Virus record (IMG/VR): IMGVR_UViG_2660238269_000008
Length of the DNA: 43,719 nt
Origin: a virus
Lineage: Duplodnaviria > Heunggongvirae > Uroviricota > Caudoviricetes
Direction: 5' to 3' (one strand)
Position numbers and translations under genes: made by a program. Positions 16,956-24,173 of this stretch are shown one piece after another. The notes below the pieces were generated by a model. The model had not been told where the DNA came from, ran no database searches, and saw only the letters and a list, made by a program, of their open reading frames with translations. Every line of letters starts with the position of its first letter. The stretch's first letter is position 1.

Positions 16956-18014
16956 ATGTTTAATACTGTAAAAATATCCAGTTGTGAGTTAATCAACGCC
17001 GACTGCCTGGAATTTATCCGGTCGTTACCCGAAAATTCTGTTGACCTGATAGTCACGGACCCGCCGTACTTTAAAGTGAAGCCTGAGGGCTGGGATAACC
17101 AGTGGACGGGTGATGAGGATTACCTGAAATGGCTGGACCAGTGTCTGGCGCAGTTCTGGCGGGTGCTGAAACCTGCCGGAAGTCTTTACCTGTTCTGTGG
17201 CCATCGCCTGGCATCTGATATCGAAATCATGATGCGTGAACGCTTCAGTGTGCTGAACCATATTATCTGGGCGAAGCCGTCCGGACGCTGGAACGGGTGC
17301 AACAAGGAAAGCCTGAGGGCGTATTTCCCCGCCACAGAGCGCATTCTGTTCGCGGAACATTATCAGGGGCCGTATCGTCCGAAAGATGCCGGGTATGAGG
17401 CGAAGGGCAGGGCACTGAAACAGCATGTGATGGCTCCGCTGATTGCTTACTTTCGTGATGCGCGTGCTGCCCTGGGGATAACGGCAAAACAGATAGTGGA
17501 TGCCACAGGAAAGAAAAACATGGTGTCGCACTGGTTCAGTGCCAGTCAGTGGCAGCTACCGAACGAAAGTGATTATCTGAAATTACAGGCGCTGTTTGCC
17601 CGGGTGGCAGAAGAGAAGCATCAGCGCGGTGAACTGGAAAAGCCCCACCACCAGCTGCTGGAGACGTATACTTCACTGAACCGGCAGTATGCGGAACTGC
17701 AGAGTGAATATAAGCATCTGCGGCGGTATTTTGGCGTGACGGCGCAGGTGCCATACACGGATGTGTGGACGCATAAACCGGTGCAGTACTATCCCGGGAA
17801 ACATCCGTGCGAAAAACCGGCAGAAATGCTGCAGCAGATAATCAGCGCGAGCAGTCGTCCGGGGGACCTGGTTGCAGATTTCTTCATGGGGTCGGGTTCG
17901 ACAGTCAAAGCCGCGATGGCGCTGGGGCGTCGTGCAACTGGCGTTGAGCTGGAGACTGAACGTTTTGAGCAGACGGTCAGGGAAGTACGGGATTTAGTCA
18001 GTCAGAATGGATGA
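16956..18014 (+). CDS. Orphan DNA methyltransferase (amino-MTase, beta class: DPPY motif IV precedes FxGxG motif I)
   Basis: VTDPPY near the N-terminus, DLVADFFMGSGST near the C-terminus, with a charged/coiled-coil-like segment between; no adjacent restriction endonuclease. Confidence 0.85.
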   Translation: MFNTVKISSCELINADCLEFIRSLPENSVDLIVTDPPYFKVKPEGWDNQWTGDEDYLKWLDQCLAQFWRVLKPAGSLYLFCGHRLASDIEIMMRERFSVLNHIIWAKPSGRWNGCNKESLRAYFPATERILFAEHYQGPYRPKDAGYEAKGRALKQHVMAPLIAYFRDARAALGITAKQIVDATGKKNMVSHWFSASQWQLPNESDYLKLQALFARVAEEKHQRGELEKPHHQLLETYTSLNRQYAELQSEYKHLRRYFGVTAQVPYTDVWTHKPVQYYPGKHPCEKPAEMLQQIISASSRPGDLVADFFMGSGSTVKAAMALGRRATGVELETERFEQTVREVRDLVSQNG

Positions 18015-18054: not shown

Positions 18055-18130
18055 GGCCCTTTAGCTCAGTGGTGAGAGCGAGCGACTCATAATCGCCAGG
18101 TCGCTGGTTCAAATCCAGCAAGGGCCACCA
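18055..18130 (+). tRNA. ileZ: tRNA with CAU anticodon (Ile2, lysidine type; ileZ-like)
   Basis: Hand-folded cloverleaf: acceptor GGCCCTT/AAGGGCC, loop CTCATAA, T-loop TTCAAAT, 3' CCA; closely resembles E. coli ileX as recalled. Confidence 0.85.
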
Positions 18131-18139
18131 TATCACATA

Positions 18140-18216
18140 CCGCCATTAGCTCATCGGGATAGAGCGCCAGCCTTCGAAGCTGGCTGCGCGGGGTTCGAGT
18201 CCTCGATGGCGGTCCA
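18140..18216 (+). tRNA. tRNA-Arg (anticodon read as UCG)
   Basis: Hand-folded cloverleaf: acceptor CCGCCAT/ATGGCGG, anticodon stem CCAGC/GCTGG, loop CTTCGAA, T-loop TTCGAGT, 3' CCA. Confidence 0.75.
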
Positions 18217-18494: not shown

Positions 18495-18923
18495 ATGTAT
18501 TGCCGTGCTGTACCTGTTCTTGTTTTGATATTAGCCAGTCTGACAACTGGCTGCACAAAAGATGTATCGACAAATAATCATGATGCTTCTCTGTATCACT
18601 CAGATAAATTAATAAAGTCGCAAAATTTGAGCTCATCGGAACGTACCCCTGATGCCAGTGAAGAAATCCGGCAGTATGCCATTCAGGTCAGGAAAGCCAT
18701 AGAAGAACAGTTAAAGGATGCGAGTAAGTATTCAGGAAAAGAGTGTTCACTGAGAATGTATATGGCCCCGAATGGTCTTCTGCTACAGGTTAAAAGAGAA
18801 AGCGGTGATCCCGATTTATGTCGTGAAGCGATGAATGCAGTAAAGAATGCTGATATACCATCACCACCGTCTTCAGGAGTATATAAAGCATTTAGAAATG
18901 GCGTGCTGGATTTTAAACTCTGA
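18495..18923 (+). CDS. Lipoprotein with a TolA C-terminal domain III-like fold
   Basis: Signal peptide with lipobox LTTG-C; residues 60-142 align with E. coli TolA C-terminus (YAGKTCTLRIKLAPDGMLLDIKPEGGDPALCQAA...PKPPSQAVYEVFKNAPLDFKP vs SGKECSLRMYMAPNGLLLQVKRESGDPDLCREA...PSPPSSGVYKAFRNGVLDFKL). Confidence 0.8.
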   Translation: MYCRAVPVLVLILASLTTGCTKDVSTNNHDASLYHSDKLIKSQNLSSSERTPDASEEIRQYAIQVRKAIEEQLKDASKYSGKECSLRMYMAPNGLLLQVKRESGDPDLCREAMNAVKNADIPSPPSSGVYKAFRNGVLDFKL

Positions 18924-18980: not shown

Positions 18981-19240
18981 TCTGTGAAGTGTTAAATCCC
19001 TCACAATTCAGTAAGTTGACAGTTGCCTGTCAGACTGAGCATTTGTTAAAAAAATTTCGCATGGTGAATCCCCCTGTGCGGAGGGGCGACTGGTGAACGG
19101 TATGATCTCTTTGATGATCGTAAGCGAGAATACGCGGGTTTGGTGTCACCGGGCTGAACTCACCGGGAGGCACCCGGCACCATGCTCATGGTGATACAGA
19201 AATGCGGCTTCAGCCCCTCTCCGGAGGGGCTTTCTTATGG
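18981..19240 (+). repeat. Isolated copy (U1) of the ~250-bp hairpin-rich repeat family, ending in an intrinsic terminator
   Basis: Carries the three conserved modules tgttaaat.cctcaca, catggtgaatccccctgtgcggaggggc and ctcaccgggaggcacccggcaccatg, then gcccctctccggaggggc plus T-rich tail. Confidence 0.8.
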
Positions 19241-19384
19241 ACAAAAAAAGCCCGCGCTGGGAGACGCGGGCGGCAAGGAATAAACAATAAAACGTGAAGT
19301 AATACTTCAACTGGCGAATAATACCCGACAGTAATCACTCTGCGCAATAGCGTGGCCTTTTTCGAATTGCGGGCTGTAGTCTCC

Positions 19385-19556
19385 CTTCTGCCGGGTGTCC
19401 AGGTTGCAGATTTCTTCATGGGGTAGGGTTCGGCAGTTAAAGCAGCGATGGCGCTGGGGCGTCGTGCAACTGGCGTTGAGCTGGATACCGGGCGTTTTGA
19501 ACAGACTGCGCAGGAAATCAGGGATGTATTTAGCGGGAGCGGTTTGCAGAAGTAAT
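19385..19556 (+). pseudogene. 3' remnant of a second, diverged DNA methyltransferase gene
   Basis: High by-eye identity to the 3' end of the intact MTase (17866..18014), ends at an equivalent stop, but has an in-frame TAG in place of the MTase TCG codon and no 5' part. Confidence 0.75.
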
Positions 19557-19618
19557 CTCCCAAAATGCCATTTTTGGAATATACTGGTATTAAGTCTTTT
19601 TGCTCAGGTTAATTCAAA

Positions 19619-20344
19619 ATGGATGTTGCCTGCTCTGTGGTCCTGATTCGCTATCCGATAGATATTTTTCTTGAAAAAGAAAAAGTTTCACTCGATGCCG
19701 GAAGTGTTATGCTTGTTGCCAGAAATATAAGAGGGCTTTTCTGTGCTTATGCCGACAGAGTGAAAATGGCAGATATAAGTAACAGCGTCGTCAATCAGTA
19801 TCTGGAAAGGGAGTGTGAACTGACGGAGTATACACCGACAAAAATGCCTCTTTATTTGATGTCTGATATTTACAATACGGAACTGGCGGAGGCTTTAATA
19901 ACCCAGCATAGTGAATCCAGTGATACTTTGAAGGATTTCTCTGTTATAACCGCATTTTCATGTATCTCCTTATTTGCAACAGACAGACGTCTGCCATTAT
20001 TTTTGTCCGGTGCTGTAAATAATATCAGCTGTAAAGTAAGGGCTATAATTCAGACCGACATATCGGCAGGCTGGATGCTTGGTGTGATTGCATTACAATT
20101 GCATATGAGCGAAAGCTTGTTGAAGCGAAAACTTAAGGATGAAGGTTATAGCTTTAGTCGGTTGTTGCTGGAGGAGCGAATGCGTGTTGCTGTTAATCTT
20201 GTATGTTTCCAGCGAGAGTGTGGACAAGCGATAGCGGAAAAATGTGGTTACTCAAGTAAGTCCTACTTCATTTCTGTATTTCACCAGTATTATGGTGCAC
20301 CACCTGAGAGCTATGCATATTTGCAGAAAGCAGACGTTATCTGA
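19619..20344 (+). CDS. AraC/XylS-family transcriptional regulator, AppY/EnvY/AdiY-like
   Basis: C-terminal dual HTH aligns with EnvY/AppY (..CGYSS.SYFISVF...YG..P..Y); 241 aa; AT-rich. Confidence 0.8.
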   Translation: MDVACSVVLIRYPIDIFLEKEKVSLDAGSVMLVARNIRGLFCAYADRVKMADISNSVVNQYLERECELTEYTPTKMPLYLMSDIYNTELAEALITQHSESSDTLKDFSVITAFSCISLFATDRRLPLFLSGAVNNISCKVRAIIQTDISAGWMLGVIALQLHMSESLLKRKLKDEGYSFSRLLLEERMRVAVNLVCFQRECGQAIAEKCGYSSKSYFISVFHQYYGAPPESYAYLQKADVI

Positions 20345-20433
20345 TGTTTTTTCATCAGGCATATATTGATTGACTGTATTAGATATAGTCTGAATGTGTT
20401 CAGCATAAAAAGTTATAATCATTTGGTGTTTGC

Positions 20434-20712
20434 GTGAATATTGATGAGAAAATCAGATGTAGCCAACTGTTACAGCGTATTGAAGCCGTCAATGTGGAAC
20501 GAACAAAGGTCTTCAGTCGTCTGACAGTTTTATTTTGTACCCCTGATCGACGTTCAGGTCAGGAGATGGTTCTTCTGGATGTAGATGCACTTCGGAACGT
20601 CTGTGAGGAGTTCACCGCGGCTAATTCGGAGTTACTGAGTCTTGTTCAGGAGTACAACAGAATTGCAGGTAGTAACGGTTTTGATGAAATCAAAATTATA
20701 TCCCGTGGATAA
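20434..20712 (+). CDS. Small hypothetical protein (92 aa) downstream of the AraC-like regulator
   Basis: ORF with GTG start; same strand as the regulator. Confidence 0.4.
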   Translation: MNIDEKIRCSQLLQRIEAVNVERTKVFSRLTVLFCTPDRRSGQEMVLLDVDALRNVCEEFTAANSELLSLVQEYNRIAGSNGFDEIKIISRG

Positions 20713-20954
20713 AACATATCCTGTATATTTATGTTGTTACATACAGGCGCTTTTAGTATCTGCCGCACGGCAGTTGTACTTCAGAATAAGATGCTTTTGT
20801 GACTGGTGGTGTTGTATCTGGGGTTAGCCAGTAGGCAGGTTCAGAGAGTCCGGTGGTAATTATGTGTATGCAGTGGTTGTTGCTGTACCGTGGGCAAGTT
20901 CTGGAACTGGCTTCGTCCATTGTAGATGATTGTTAGCTGGATATCAGTTACCTC

Positions 20955-21980
20955 ATGGAAATGTTAAATGACTCACAATTCGGTTGATGGGCTATTGTCT
21001 GATCGATGGAAGTCTTGTAAAAACGAGCCAGCATAGTGAATCCCCCTGTGCGGAGGGGCGTCTGACATGGTCTCCATAGCGATGGTCACAATACGCAGAT
21101 TCAGTAGTCAGGCTGAATCTACCGGGAGGCACCCGGCACTATGCTGCTTATGGTGTATACATAGCGATCGGCCCCTCTCCGGAGGGGCTTTTTTTGTGCG
21201 GGAAAAGGCTGTGTTGTTAAGTGTTAAATTCCTCACAGTTCAGATGGTTGATGCTTGCCTGTCTGAGGGGGAGTTGTTAAAAAAGTTCTGCATGGTGAAT
21301 CCCCCTGTGCGGAGGGGCGACTGGTGTGATTTGCATCTTTTCTGTTGTAGGCAATGCAAACGCGGGTTCAGGGACACCAGACTGGACTCACCGGGAGGCA
21401 CCCGGCACCATGTTCATGATGATACAGATACGCAGTGTCAGCCCCTCTCCTGAGGGGCTTTTTTATGCAGGAAAAACGCTGTGTTGTGAAATGTTAAATT
21501 CCTCACAGTTCAGATGGTTGATGCTTGCCTGTCTTACGGGGAGTTGTTAAAAAAGTTCTGCATGGTGAATCCCCCTGAGCGGAGGGGCATATCAGCGCAG
21601 GTGTTTCTACTCTATCCTTTCTGTGCGGGTTCAGGTGCTGATACTGAACTCACCGGGAGGCACCCGGCATCATGCATATGGTTAACAGACACGTAGCGAA
21701 GCCCCTCTCCGGAGGGGCTTTTTTATGCAGGGAAAAGGCTGTGTTGTGAAATGTTAAATTCCTCACAATTCATGAGGTTGATGATTGTCTGATTGATGAG
21801 GAGTTTGTTAAAAAAAACGGGCATGGTGAATCCCCCTGTGCGGAGGGGTGATATCGTATCATTTCCTGTGTGGCCGACTGATATCACGGACATTTGTTCA
21901 CCGGGAGGCACCCGGCACCATGCAGTATACAGAGATTAGGCATACATCCAGGCTCCTCATCGCAGGAGCCTTTTTACATG
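20955..21980 (+). repeat. Tandem array of four ~250-bp units (U2-U5) of the hairpin-rich repeat family; candidate structured ncRNA genes
   Basis: Units at about 20955-21196, 21205-21465, 21481-21726, 21741-21980; same conserved modules in each; variable segments keep self-complementarity; each unit ends in a terminator hairpin plus T-run. Confidence 0.8.
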
Positions 21981-22208
21981 TAAAAAAAAACCGCTCCTGG
22001 GAAGAGCGGTTGGCAAGGAAGCAAGGAATAAATAACAAAACGTGAAGTAATTTATTCAGCACCCTAATAATACCTTAGAGTAATCACCTTGCGCAACTGT
22101 AAGGGCGTATTTCTTTTTTGCGGGCTGTTTTTCTGTGTGACTTTTGTGTTTCCGGAGGTCAGCCCGTGCCTTCTCTGACTCAGAACATTATCCCGGCCGG
22201 GAGGATTC

Positions 22209-24173
22209 ATGGCATTTAAACACTACGATGTGGTCAGGGCGGCATCGCCGTCAGACCTTGCTGAACGACTGACACAAAAACTGAAGGAGGGCTGGCAGCC
22301 ATTTGGCAGTCCGGTGGCCATCACGCCTTATACCCTGATGCAGGCCATTGCGGCGGAAGGTGATGTCACCACACCAGTGGCGGTGACCGGTAATGAGGGT
22401 AAGGCGGTGGCTGTCAGTGCCACCAGCGACCCGGAGTATTACTTTGTTGTGGTTCTGGCAGGGCAGTCAAATGGCATGTCGTATGGTGAAGGTCTTCCGC
22501 TGCCGGAGACATATGACCGTCCGGACCCGCGTATTAAGCAGCTGGCGCGCCGCAGTACGGTGACACCGGGCGGTGTCGCCTGTAAATATAACGACATCAT
22601 TCCGGCGGACCATTGTCTGCATGATGTGCAGGACATGAGCCGTCTTAACCATCCGAAAGCGGACCTGTCAAAAGGGCAGTACGGAACCGTGGGGCAGGGG
22701 CTGCATATCGCCAAAAAACTGCTGCCGTTTATACCGGCGAATGCGGGTATTCTGCTGGTTCCGTGCTGTCGTGGTGGTTCAGCGTTCACCACCGGAGCTG
22801 ATGGCACATACAGTGACGCTGGCGGTGCCTCGGAGAATTCAGCGCGCTGGGGTGTGGACAAGCCGCTGTATAAGGACCTTATCGGTCGAACAAAAGCAGC
22901 ACTGAAGAAGAACCCGAAAAATGTGCTGTTTACCGTGGTGTGGATGCAGGGGGAATTTGATTTTGACGGCACGCCCGGAAATCACGCAGCACAGTTTGGT
23001 GCGCTGGTTGATAAATTCCGTGCAGACCTGGCGGATATGGCAGGCCAGTGCGTCAGTGGCTCTGCTGGCAGTGTTCCCTGGATATGCGGGGACACGACGT
23101 ATTTCTGGAAGCAGAAGAACGAATCCACGTACCAGACGGTGTACGGCAGCTATAAAAACAAAACGGAAAAGAATATCCATTTCGTACCGTTCATGACGGA
23201 TGAGAACGGGGTGAATGTGCCGACGAACAAACCGGAAGAAGACCCGGACATTCCGGGTATCGGGTATTACGGTTCGAAATGGCGTGACAGCTCAGCCACC
23301 TGGACGTCACAGGACAGGGCGAGCCATTTCAGCACCTGGGCACGCCGGGGGATTATTTCCGACCGTCTGGCAACGGCGATTCTGGTGCACGCCGGGAGAA
23401 CCGCTGAATTCATTACCGGAAAACAGCCTGATATGGTGAAGCCCACCGTACCTTCCGGTGAAGGTCCGGAGAGAGAGGCGGAAGCCCCGGTCAGTAACCG
23501 AACCCTGATGAGTCTGCTGGCATCCGGCGAAGACCTGGCATCACAGGGCTGGCGCTATTATCACAAACCGGCGGGCGGAGACAGTGTTAACAAAAACATT
23601 GCTGAAGCGGTGGTCAGTGATGCGGGGGCTACGGGAGGTAAGGCTCTGCAACTGAACAAACCGGAAAACCACATCTGGTTTCTGGAGCATGATGCAGCCG
23701 GACAGGGTGCGGAGTTACTGAAGAAGGGCGGACGTGTGAGCGTACGGTTTAAGTTGCCGGGTTCACTGGTGCCGAATCAGTTTGCCCTGGGCATTTACTG
23801 GCAGTTGTCGTCCCTGCCGGAGGGGGTGACGCTGTCAGGAGAAGGTAACGATATGCTGATGTCCTTCTTCCTGCAGACGGATACGACGAACCTGAACGCG
23901 ATGCATCACAGGAAGCCGAATGCGAAGCTGGATACATTCGGGGTCTTTGATAACGGATGGCACACGCTGGCTTTTGAGTTTGCCGGAAACAACAGCATTC
24001 AGGTGACACCTGTACTGGATGAGAAACGGGGAGCGGCGTTCACACTGGTGAAGTCACCGGCATCGGGGGCGGCGGACAAACTGCAACTGACCGATATATC
24101 AAAATCGGCGACGTATACGCTGCTGATTGACAGCATTGCGGTGGAAGTGAACAGCACAGACACTGCGGCATGA
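22209..24173 (+). CDS. nanS-p: Prophage 9-O-acetyl-sialate esterase NanS-p (SGNH/SASA esterase)
   Basis: 654 aa; GQSNGMSYG esterase motif; size and position (immediately upstream of the lysis cassette) match the NanS-p genes that follow stx in Stx phages. Confidence 0.75.
   Translation: MAFKHYDVVRAASPSDLAERLTQKLKEGWQPFGSPVAITPYTLMQAIAAEGDVTTPVAVTGNEGKAVAVSATSDPEYYFVVVLAGQSNGMSYGEGLPLPETYDRPDPRIKQLARRSTVTPGGVACKYNDIIPADHCLHDVQDMSRLNHPKADLSKGQYGTVGQGLHIAKKLLPFIPANAGILLVPCCRGGSAFTTGADGTYSDAGGASENSARWGVDKPLYKDLIGRTKAALKKNPKNVLFTVVWMQGEFDFDGTPGNHAAQFGALVDKFRADLADMAGQCVSGSAGSVPWICGDTTYFWKQKNESTYQTVYGSYKNKTEKNIHFVPFMTDENGVNVPTNKPEEDPDIPGIGYYGSKWRDSSATWTSQDRASHFSTWARRGIISDRLATAILVHAGRTAEFITGKQPDMVKPTVPSGEGPEREAEAPVSNRTLMSLLASGEDLASQGWRYYHKPAGGDSVNKNIAEAVVSDAGATGGKALQLNKPENHIWFLEHDAAGQGAELLKKGGRVSVRFKLPGSLVPNQFALGIYWQLSSLPEGVTLSGEGNDMLMSFFLQTDTTNLNAMHHRKPNAKLDTFGVFDNGWHTLAFEFAGNNSIQVTPVLDEKRGAAFTLVKSPASGAADKLQLTDISKSATYTLLIDSIAVEVNSTDTAA

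Follow-up and report, generated by a model that had tools for sequence, protein, structure and literature searches.

Two adjacent genes on the plus strand of the Caudoviricetes virus record IMGVR_UViG_2660238269_000008, a stretch of 43,719 nucleotides that is referred to below in its entirety as the window, encode a 241-residue regulator of the AraC/XylS family (19619..20344) and a 92-residue protein (20434..20712). Comparisons of the regulator with characterized members of the family indicate that it is a distinct, diverged lineage of the PsrA/PsrB family of prophage-borne regulators. The explanation that best accounts for the whole, and which we consider probable though far from assured, is that the regulator gene is a moron of the Psr family, whose product would activate the host gadE and hdeA genes, while the 92-codon gene would be an independent item of phage cargo. 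Both genes are ordinary prophage cargo, of which the Psr lineage is new and the kind already known, and both are already present in the databases, as an unnamed helix-turn-helix (HTH) protein and a hypothetical protein.

A preliminary description of this region, made from the nucleotide sequence, had pointed to the same two open reading frames (ORFs), and the ORF listing agrees with it in their placement, their lengths and their common strand. It had further portrayed them as an AppY/EnvY-like regulator and its small partner, and here the evidence presented below leads to a different picture.

Family affiliation of the regulator

The regulator gene begins with an ATG and specifies a protein of 27.2 kDa, which corresponds to RefSeq WP_000382066.1 and bears there the label 'helix-turn-helix domain-containing protein'. 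Profile searches bear out the C-terminal dual HTH of the AraC/XylS type that had been recognized by eye: the Pfam models HTH_18 (47.3 bits against a cut-off of 33.6) and HTH_AraC (41.5 bits against a cut-off of 26.6) both match residues 158-232. Sequence matches in the PDB comprise the DNA-binding domain of GadX (3mkl, E 1.9e-18), Rns, CsvR and ToxT, and residues 1-125 can be aligned with the N-terminal parts of PsrA, GadW, YdeO and AppY. On these alignments the regulator is an AraC/XylS-family protein of the broad group that includes GadX, GadW, YdeO, AppY, AdiY and EnvY, with which it appears to share a two-domain architecture. An AlphaFold2 (AF2) model built from 13 homologues had a mean predicted local distance difference test (pLDDT) value of 45 and was too poor for a fold search.

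The relationships within this group were assessed by BLASTP against proteins from annotated K-12 and O157 records. The closest matches were PsrA (ECs1087 of strain Sakai; 58% identity over 239 residues, E 3e-94) and a paralogue from O157 strain FRIK944 that is itself 91% identical to PsrA (59% over 239 residues, E 2e-95). They were followed at a distance by GadW (35%, E 2.5e-43), YdeO (31%, E 1.9e-35), AppY (31%, E 9e-33) and AdiY (29%, E 2.6e-25), all aligned over their full length, while GadX (41%, E 6e-25) and EnvY (40%, E 5.5e-22) were aligned over the C-terminal half only. Across the different comparisons the identities ranged over 58-59% for PsrA, 34-35% for GadW, 28-31% for AppY and 27-29% for AdiY, with EnvY at 28%. 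The earlier placement closest to AppY, EnvY and AdiY is thus not sustained, as these three reach only 27-31% against 58-59% for PsrA, and even GadW, the nearest K-12 protein, scores higher than they do. The accompanying statement that both appY and envY are prophage-borne in K-12 holds for appY (583681-584430), which lies inside the cryptic prophage DLP12, and fails for envY (586147-586908), which lies a short way past the annotated end of that prophage at 586056.

Of the NCBIfam models, the one for YdeO matched the regulator best (119.8 bits, with a cut-off of 348), and the one for GadX gave 92.6 bits (cut-off of 500); since these scores are far under the equivalog cut-offs, the regulator does not appear to be an orthologue of any named K-12 regulator. 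No match was returned for it by PADLOC, which gives no link to a known defence system. In the PHROG collection it falls into phrog_1450 (E 4.8e-92), the cluster to which PsrA also belongs.

PsrA and PsrB are the prophage-encoded secretion regulators of enterohaemorrhagic Escherichia coli O157:H7 (z1789 and z2104); psrA corresponds to ECs1087 in prophage Sp4 of strain Sakai, a gene that has been given this name in the literature (PMC13502914). The regulator resembles these proteins in its homology over the full length, in its length class (237-241 residues), in its nearly identical recognition helices, in the N-terminal start motif M-x-V-x-CSV and in a conserved -10-like box upstream of the gene. 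Unlike the PsrA/PsrB pair, whose members are about 90% identical to each other, it has only some 59% identity with each of them. The divergence is unevenly distributed, with 47% identity to PsrA over the N-terminal 125 residues, where the regulator has a 3-residue insertion, and 73% over the DNA-binding domain. All 13 family members compared, the regulator included, have the motifs MSESLLK.KL and CGYSS.SYF.SVFH.YYG unchanged in their recognition helices, and a single residue inside each helix varies across lineages (R/I/T/K in helix 3; K/W/R/L in helix 6). Taken at the level of protein alignments, the Psr family is accordingly wider than the O157 pair, with at least four lineages that are about 60% identical to one another: the window type, two represented by the loci L013 and L014, and PsrA/B.

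More distant is PatE (z0321), another prophage-borne AraC-like protein of the same broad subfamily that activates the gadE/hdeA acid-resistance genes. Its probable orthologue ECs0287, an assignment made from position alone, shows 36% identity to the regulator in a multiple alignment and, unlike the regulator gene, lies at the end of a degraded prophage and not in a late region. Of the K-12 paralogues, which differ from the regulator in sharing only 26-35% identity with it, GadW, YdeO and AppY align over the full length, and AppY offers a further parallel in being carried by a prophage (DLP12), and is itself an activator of gadE.

Prophage setting of the regulator gene

The genomic context was read from the RefSeq annotation of strain 05-3629, whose regulator gene is 100% identical to that of the window. 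In this strain the gene belongs to an apparently complete lambdoid prophage that adjoins ompW and extends from an integrase through tail genes, in agreement with the preliminary description of the two genes as prophage cargo. The prophage starts with genes for an integrase, an excisionase, an exonuclease and dicB, which lead into the repressor region and the replication genes. There follow hokD, DUF968, RusA, the Q antiterminator, a methyltransferase, tRNA-Ile(CAU), tRNA-Arg(UCG), a TolA-like protein, a methylase remnant, the regulator and an unannotated stretch. A SASA/NanS-p esterase, holin, lysozyme and Rz then precede the terminase, capsid and tail genes. The regulator gene hence belongs to the late-region cargo of a lambdoid E. 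coli prophage, in the slot flanked by Q and the lysis genes.

Homologues occupy a comparable late region in Sakai Sp4 (psrA), in FRIK944 (the O157 paralogue) and in phage phiSTEC1575-Stx2k, where the equivalent slot holds the regulator homologue, tRNAs and then stx2k. The window shares with psrA the lambdoid late-region framework, from antiterminator genes to the nanS-p esterase and lysis genes, and differs from it in the local order. In Sakai Sp4, FRIK944 and phiSTEC1575-Stx2k the regulator gene is 5' of the tRNAs, whereas in the window it is 3' of the tRNAs and of the tolA-like gene, behind the methylase remnant, and is followed, unlike psrA, by the phrog_2873 gene for the 92-residue protein.

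Several traits typical of morons are seen here. As had been noticed earlier, both genes are AT-rich: the GC content is 41.3% in the regulator gene and 43.0% in the 92-codon gene, compared with 51.6% in the window and with 54-56% in the neighbouring methylase and esterase genes. The pair, at 41-43% GC in a 52% setting, sits between phage modules and shows presence/absence polymorphism among phages. As regards expression signals, there is one conserved -10-like box, and the terminator 3' of the 92-codon gene, which is clear at loci L003 and L013, is degenerate in the window.

Proposed function of the regulator

The claim that prophage-borne AraC-like regulators rewire their hosts is well founded in the literature, which documents such proteins acting on both acid-resistance and virulence circuits of E. 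coli, the latter through the type III secretion system (T3SS) (PMC10877973, PMC10057817). PsrA and PsrB raise the expression of GadE and YhiF and thereby repress the T3SS; PsrB binds the hdeA promoter (-132 to -45) and the gadE promoter and raises acid resistance; PatE has similar effects; PsrA, PsrB and PatE alike activate gadE, hdeA and acid-resistance system 2 (AR2) and repress the T3SS; and deletions of psrA and patE give phenotypes (PMC10877973). AppY, itself carried by a prophage, acts in a like manner and activates gadE directly (PMC10057817).

By analogy with these relatives, the regulator would probably activate the gadE/hdeA regulon, through which the host resists acid. As a moron within the late region of its lambdoid prophage, the gene would be expressed in the lysogen from a promoter of its own. 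Its product would act as PsrA and PsrB do, binding host promoters that are rich in AT and silenced by H-NS, among them those of gadE and hdeA, and would switch on glutamate-dependent acid resistance. In hosts positive for the enterocyte effacement locus (LEE), this activation would secondarily repress type III secretion. With an N-terminal domain that is 47% identical to that of PsrA, the signal or partner that it senses may differ. The 92-codon gene would be a separate, independently mobile piece of phage cargo, linked to the regulator by recombination history.

The promoter postulated in this scheme finds a candidate in the hexamer TATACT at 19580..19585 on the plus strand, which may be the -10 box of the regulator gene. 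Six diverged Psr-type loci all have a TATA(A/C)T sequence about 35 nucleotides 5' of the ATG, although they are unrelated in the DNA further upstream, and this pattern suggests a dedicated promoter with a candidate family-wide -10 element.

A number of observations pull in the other direction. A scan for the sigma-70 consensus found no promoter before the regulator gene, nor before the 92-codon gene. The proposed function is carried over from relatives at 59% identity, and the N-terminal domain is strongly diverged from that of PsrA. The identities of the reference proteins also carry a qualification: the FRIK944 paralogue was taken as PsrB by its 91% identity to PsrA, a value that agrees with the published 90% between PsrA and PsrB (PMC10877973), and ECs0287 was taken as PatE by position only. 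Finally, the order of regulator followed by the 92-codon gene is seen in two diverged lineages with a like degree of divergence in both genes, which leaves some room for a functional link between them.

The alternative that survives best, although we regard it as unlikely, is that the regulator acts on other targets, either phage genes (the 92-codon gene, the array of STnc100 elements described below, or nanS-p) or another host regulon, with a different signal as the trigger. The 47% identity of the N-terminal domains and the variation of single recognition-helix residues would fit such a shift, and carriers of the gene include O113, O22:H8 and O43 strains, in which the T3SS arm may be irrelevant. 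Against this, the DNA-contacting helices are otherwise invariant in the family, and proteins as distant as PatE (36%) and AppY (about 30%) still converge on gadE/hdeA (PMC10877973, PMC10057817). Activation of gadE and hdeA is retained as the favoured proposal for the function of the regulator.

The 92-residue protein

The downstream gene begins with a GTG, the nearest in-frame stop 5' of it being at 20416, and encodes an acidic protein of 10.5 kDa with a pI of 5.1. It matches phrog_2873 along its whole length (E 1e-46, 158.6 bits; residues 1-92 on profile positions 17-108), a small family with 18 representatives in 1.84 billion proteins and without a known role, in keeping with the initial characterization of the ORF as one of unknown function. 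No match was found in Pfam, NCBIfam or PADLOC, nor in a profile search of the PDB. Its homologues in EC958, ETEC1748, phage mEp460_ev081 and L013 all have 92 codons, a GTG start (VNID...) and the same stop, and are free of indels. Across three lineages that are about 30% diverged in DNA, the changes fall mostly in third codon positions, and the ratio of nonsynonymous to synonymous substitution rates (dN/dS) is 0.2-0.33. On account of this preservation of length, start and stop, the absence of indels, the third-position bias, the dN/dS values and the phrog_2873 match, the ORF is, as judged from its conservation, a real and commonly unannotated gene. It is unannotated in two inspected RefSeq genomes that carry the allele, and ETEC1748 and GenBank records list it as hypothetical.

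An AF2 model of the protein (pLDDT 88) comprises a helix at residues 3-35, a β-hairpin at 39-46 and a second helix at 50-81, so that the protein is predicted to form a long, antiparallel helical hairpin with the β-hairpin at its tip. Fold searches with this model gave nothing significant in the PDB, where the matches included prefoldin β (E 0.05), designed helical hairpins and TraM (E 0.5), or in BFVD, where the best E was 0.2.

The size of the protein, about 10 kDa, its mainly α-helical character and its location near an AraC-family regulator in the mobile DNA of an enteric pathogen recall the ANR proteins (Aar, Rnr, Cnr), whose signature consists of a mass under 10 kDa, three helices and the residues A10, E14, A22, W26, A29, W43 and R47 (PMC4983702). 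The protein of the window differs from them in its mass of 10.5 kDa and its modelled fold of two long helices and a β-hairpin, in giving no match between sequence profiles, and in that most members of its family are not beside an AraC gene. Membership in the ANR family was accordingly rejected, as the protein lacks the signature residues and contains no tryptophan.

Distant relatives of the protein (31-38% identity) were also observed near small regulators outside phage late regions (L016 2507-4276; L017 1244-2375), namely a gene of the PapB family close to a fimbrial usher operon and one encoding a GerE/LuxR-type HTH protein.

Relationship of the two genes

The preliminary description had called the smaller ORF a partner of the regulator. 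Adjacency of the two is confined to the lineage of the window (about 80 genomes) and L013, in which a regulator 63% identical to that of the window is followed, 130 nucleotides downstream, by a homologue of the 92-residue protein (62%); L013 is one 1.6-kb Logan contig, and the second example of adjacency is this contig alone. Homologues of the 92-codon gene (60-80% nucleotide identity) are present in about 1,230 other genomes, and no AraC gene was found near them at the three inspected loci: in EC958 the homologue lies between tRNA-Arg and a DUF3927 gene, in ETEC1748 after a methylase, and in phage mEp460_ev081 after Q. Conversely, the Psr-type genes of the O157, Stx2k-phage and L014 examples have no homologue of the 92-codon gene 3' of them. 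The L013-type pair of regulator and 92-codon gene was found in 0 of 5,426 complete genomes (at least 80% coverage). In 51 genomes with the L013-type 92-codon gene, homology begins only about 40 nucleotides before its GTG, and an EC958-type flank starts about 20 nucleotides past the regulator stop codon; recombination breakpoints fall between the two genes. From the scattered homologues without an AraC gene, the Psr-type genes without a 92-codon gene and these breakpoints, it follows that the two are best seen as separate cassettes sharing a preferred slot. The designation as partners is therefore not upheld, and a functional partnership of the two proteins is, in our estimate, very unlikely.

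Viewed as a rival to the proposal of independent cargo, the partnership takes two forms. In the first, which we judge clearly unlikely, the two genes constitute a regulatory cassette, whose 92-residue product modulates the Psr-type regulator, or H-NS, by binding to it in the role of a co-factor or an anti-activator, comparable to the action of the ANR proteins Aar and Rnr on AggR and Rns, or of TraM on TraR. This view draws on the recurrence of the order regulator to 92-codon gene on the same strand, 89-130 nucleotides apart, in two lineages about 37% different in both proteins. The intergenic DNA also gives no sign of a terminator or an attenuator, the 121-nucleotide region from the regulator end to the start of the 92-codon ORF folding no more stably than shuffled sequence (z = -0.94). 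To these may be added the acidic character of the protein and its two long antiparallel helices in the model, the presence of the TraM anti-activator among the fold matches, although not at a significant level (TM 0.72, E 0.5), the location of the distant relatives beside other small regulators, and the fact that ANR proteins generally accompany AraC regulators (PMC4983702). Weighing more heavily are the roughly 1,230 genomes with a homologue and the AraC-less loci sampled among them, the Psr-type genes that lack the downstream gene, the breakpoints between the genes, the missing ANR signature (W26, W43 and others) and the absence of a significant fold match. The second form, which is still harder to credit, holds that the phrog_2873 protein is a new kind of small helical-hairpin modulator, unrelated to the ANR proteins, which would attach to H-NS or to AraC regulators of the Psr type and adjust how prophages control the host regulons for acid resistance and virulence. 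On this view the ancestral two-gene cassette would survive in the window and in L013, and the copies present elsewhere in lambdoid phages would act in trans on resident regulators of the Psr or GadW type.

Scarcely credible is the proposal that both genes are inert passengers, AT-rich and H-NS-silenced DNA without a role in the lysogen that has been kept only through a recent spread of the block, for although their intactness in some 80 genomes of at least 99% identity says little about selection, no strong promoter was found and the methylase remnant attests to local decay and rearrangement, both genes are intact across about 40% protein divergence between lineages, the DNA-binding domain is far better conserved than the rest of the regulator, the dN/dS of the 92-codon gene is 0.2-0.33, and deletions of the related psrA and patE have phenotypes (PMC10877973).

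Origin of the block

As the preliminary description had it, the two genes lie between a methyltransferase remnant (19391-19543, a RefSeq pseudogene) and a repeat array (20937-22051, with the repeat families D1-D4). The remnant, which forms the left edge of the apparently imported block (19391..19555 on the plus strand, from tblastn and the RefSeq pseudogene), is the 3' part of a DNA methyltransferase gene; positions 19391-19543 align by tblastn with residues 302-352 of the intact 352-residue methylase of the window at 74.5% identity and contain an internal TAG. The repeats belong to the STnc100 family of small RNAs (sRNAs; Rfam RF02076), with one element on the left flank (19030..19242, plus strand; 172 bits, E 6.5e-40) and four in tandem on the right (21002..21981, plus strand; 120-142 bits each). 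STnc100 is a known prophage sRNA family that has PasD as a relative and a link with esterase genes (bioRxiv 10.64898/2026.05.13.724894). Each unit contains a terminator-like hairpin, and 15 terminator-like sites occur between 18200 and 22300 against 3.1 expected, an excess of about 5-fold. A 31-nucleotide motif ends both sets of elements, at 19273-19303 and at 22021-22051.

In L013 and L014 a methylase is likewise followed by the regulator, and in L013 the 92-codon gene comes next. Since STnc100 copies with a common 31-nucleotide motif flank the block, and since L013 and L014 share its order, the block of methylase remnant, regulator and 92-codon gene appears to have recombined into an STnc100 array in a phage already equipped with its own methylase, tRNAs and tolA-like gene. 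The alternative assignment of the repeats to the HnrS sRNA (PMC13502914) was set aside, as Rfam assigns them to STnc100. The coexistence of the intact methylase gene (16956-18014) and the remnant, 1.4 kb apart, is in itself the trace left where two lambdoid phages recombined.

Prevalence and biological significance

The exact regulator protein was found on at least 999 contigs. In a large protein database it forms its own 90% cluster with 204 members, the next cluster (P0002) being 63% identical and many more lying at 54-60%. Among 5,426 complete genomes of E. coli, about 80 (some 1.5%) have the allele of the window at 99% nucleotide identity or more, and 728 have only Psr-type genes of about 69% identity. 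Isolated lambdoid phages carry the same gene class at 31-37% identity. The carriers listed are largely clinical isolates from the Centers for Disease Control and Prevention (CDC) and from Japan, and bovine or food isolates; many of their names suggest non-O157 Shiga toxin-producing E. coli. O113, O22:H8 and O43 are among the carrier strains listed, serogroups that are often LEE-negative.

PsrA, PsrB, PatE and AppY represent an established route by which phages gain access to the acid-resistance and virulence circuits of E. coli, and the regulator is located in the cargo region where toxin phages have stx, as exemplified by stx2k in an Stx2k phage. If it does activate gadE and hdeA, it would help its carrier strains to tolerate acid, and would thereby bear on the infectious dose and on how well they survive in food and cattle. 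In practical terms the yield is modest, consisting of a candidate for straightforward functional tests and of evidence for a commonly unannotated 92-codon gene.

Neighbouring genes of the cargo region

Upstream of the block the window carries, all on the plus strand, the intact phage DNA N6/N4 methyltransferase of 352 residues (16956..18014; Pfam N6_N4_Mtase, E 6.9e-44) and a pair of tRNA genes, tRNA(CAU) and tRNA-Arg(UCG) (18055..18216; ARAGORN, Rfam tRNA and RefSeq). The tRNA(CAU) is called Met by ARAGORN and Ile in RefSeq, and the pair resembles ileZ-argN of Stx phages; the third tRNA of Sakai Sp4 and the Stx2k phage, argO (UCU), is absent from the window.

The tRNAs are followed by a further cargo gene (18495..18923, plus strand) for a 142-residue protein with a TolA C-terminal domain (Pfam TolA, 81.4 bits; phrog_5772). 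This gene is also AT-rich (41% GC), its product has an N-terminal signal or lipobox-like LTTGC sequence, and it recurs in the same Q-to-lysis slot of phage mEp460_ev081. PADLOC gave no match for the protein, which might interfere with colicins or phages that depend on TolA.

Next after the cargo region comes the gene (22209..24173, plus strand) for a NanS-p-type SASA carbohydrate esterase (Pfam DUF1737, SASA and DUF6645; RefSeq). The spacer between the regulator and the esterase gene measures 1,864 nucleotides in the window (20345-22208) and 1,594 in strain 05-3629 (L019 20727-22320), a difference of about one 270-nucleotide STnc100 unit, and in strain RM14516 (L001 10946-15258) this spacer is broken by an ISEc8/IS66 element.

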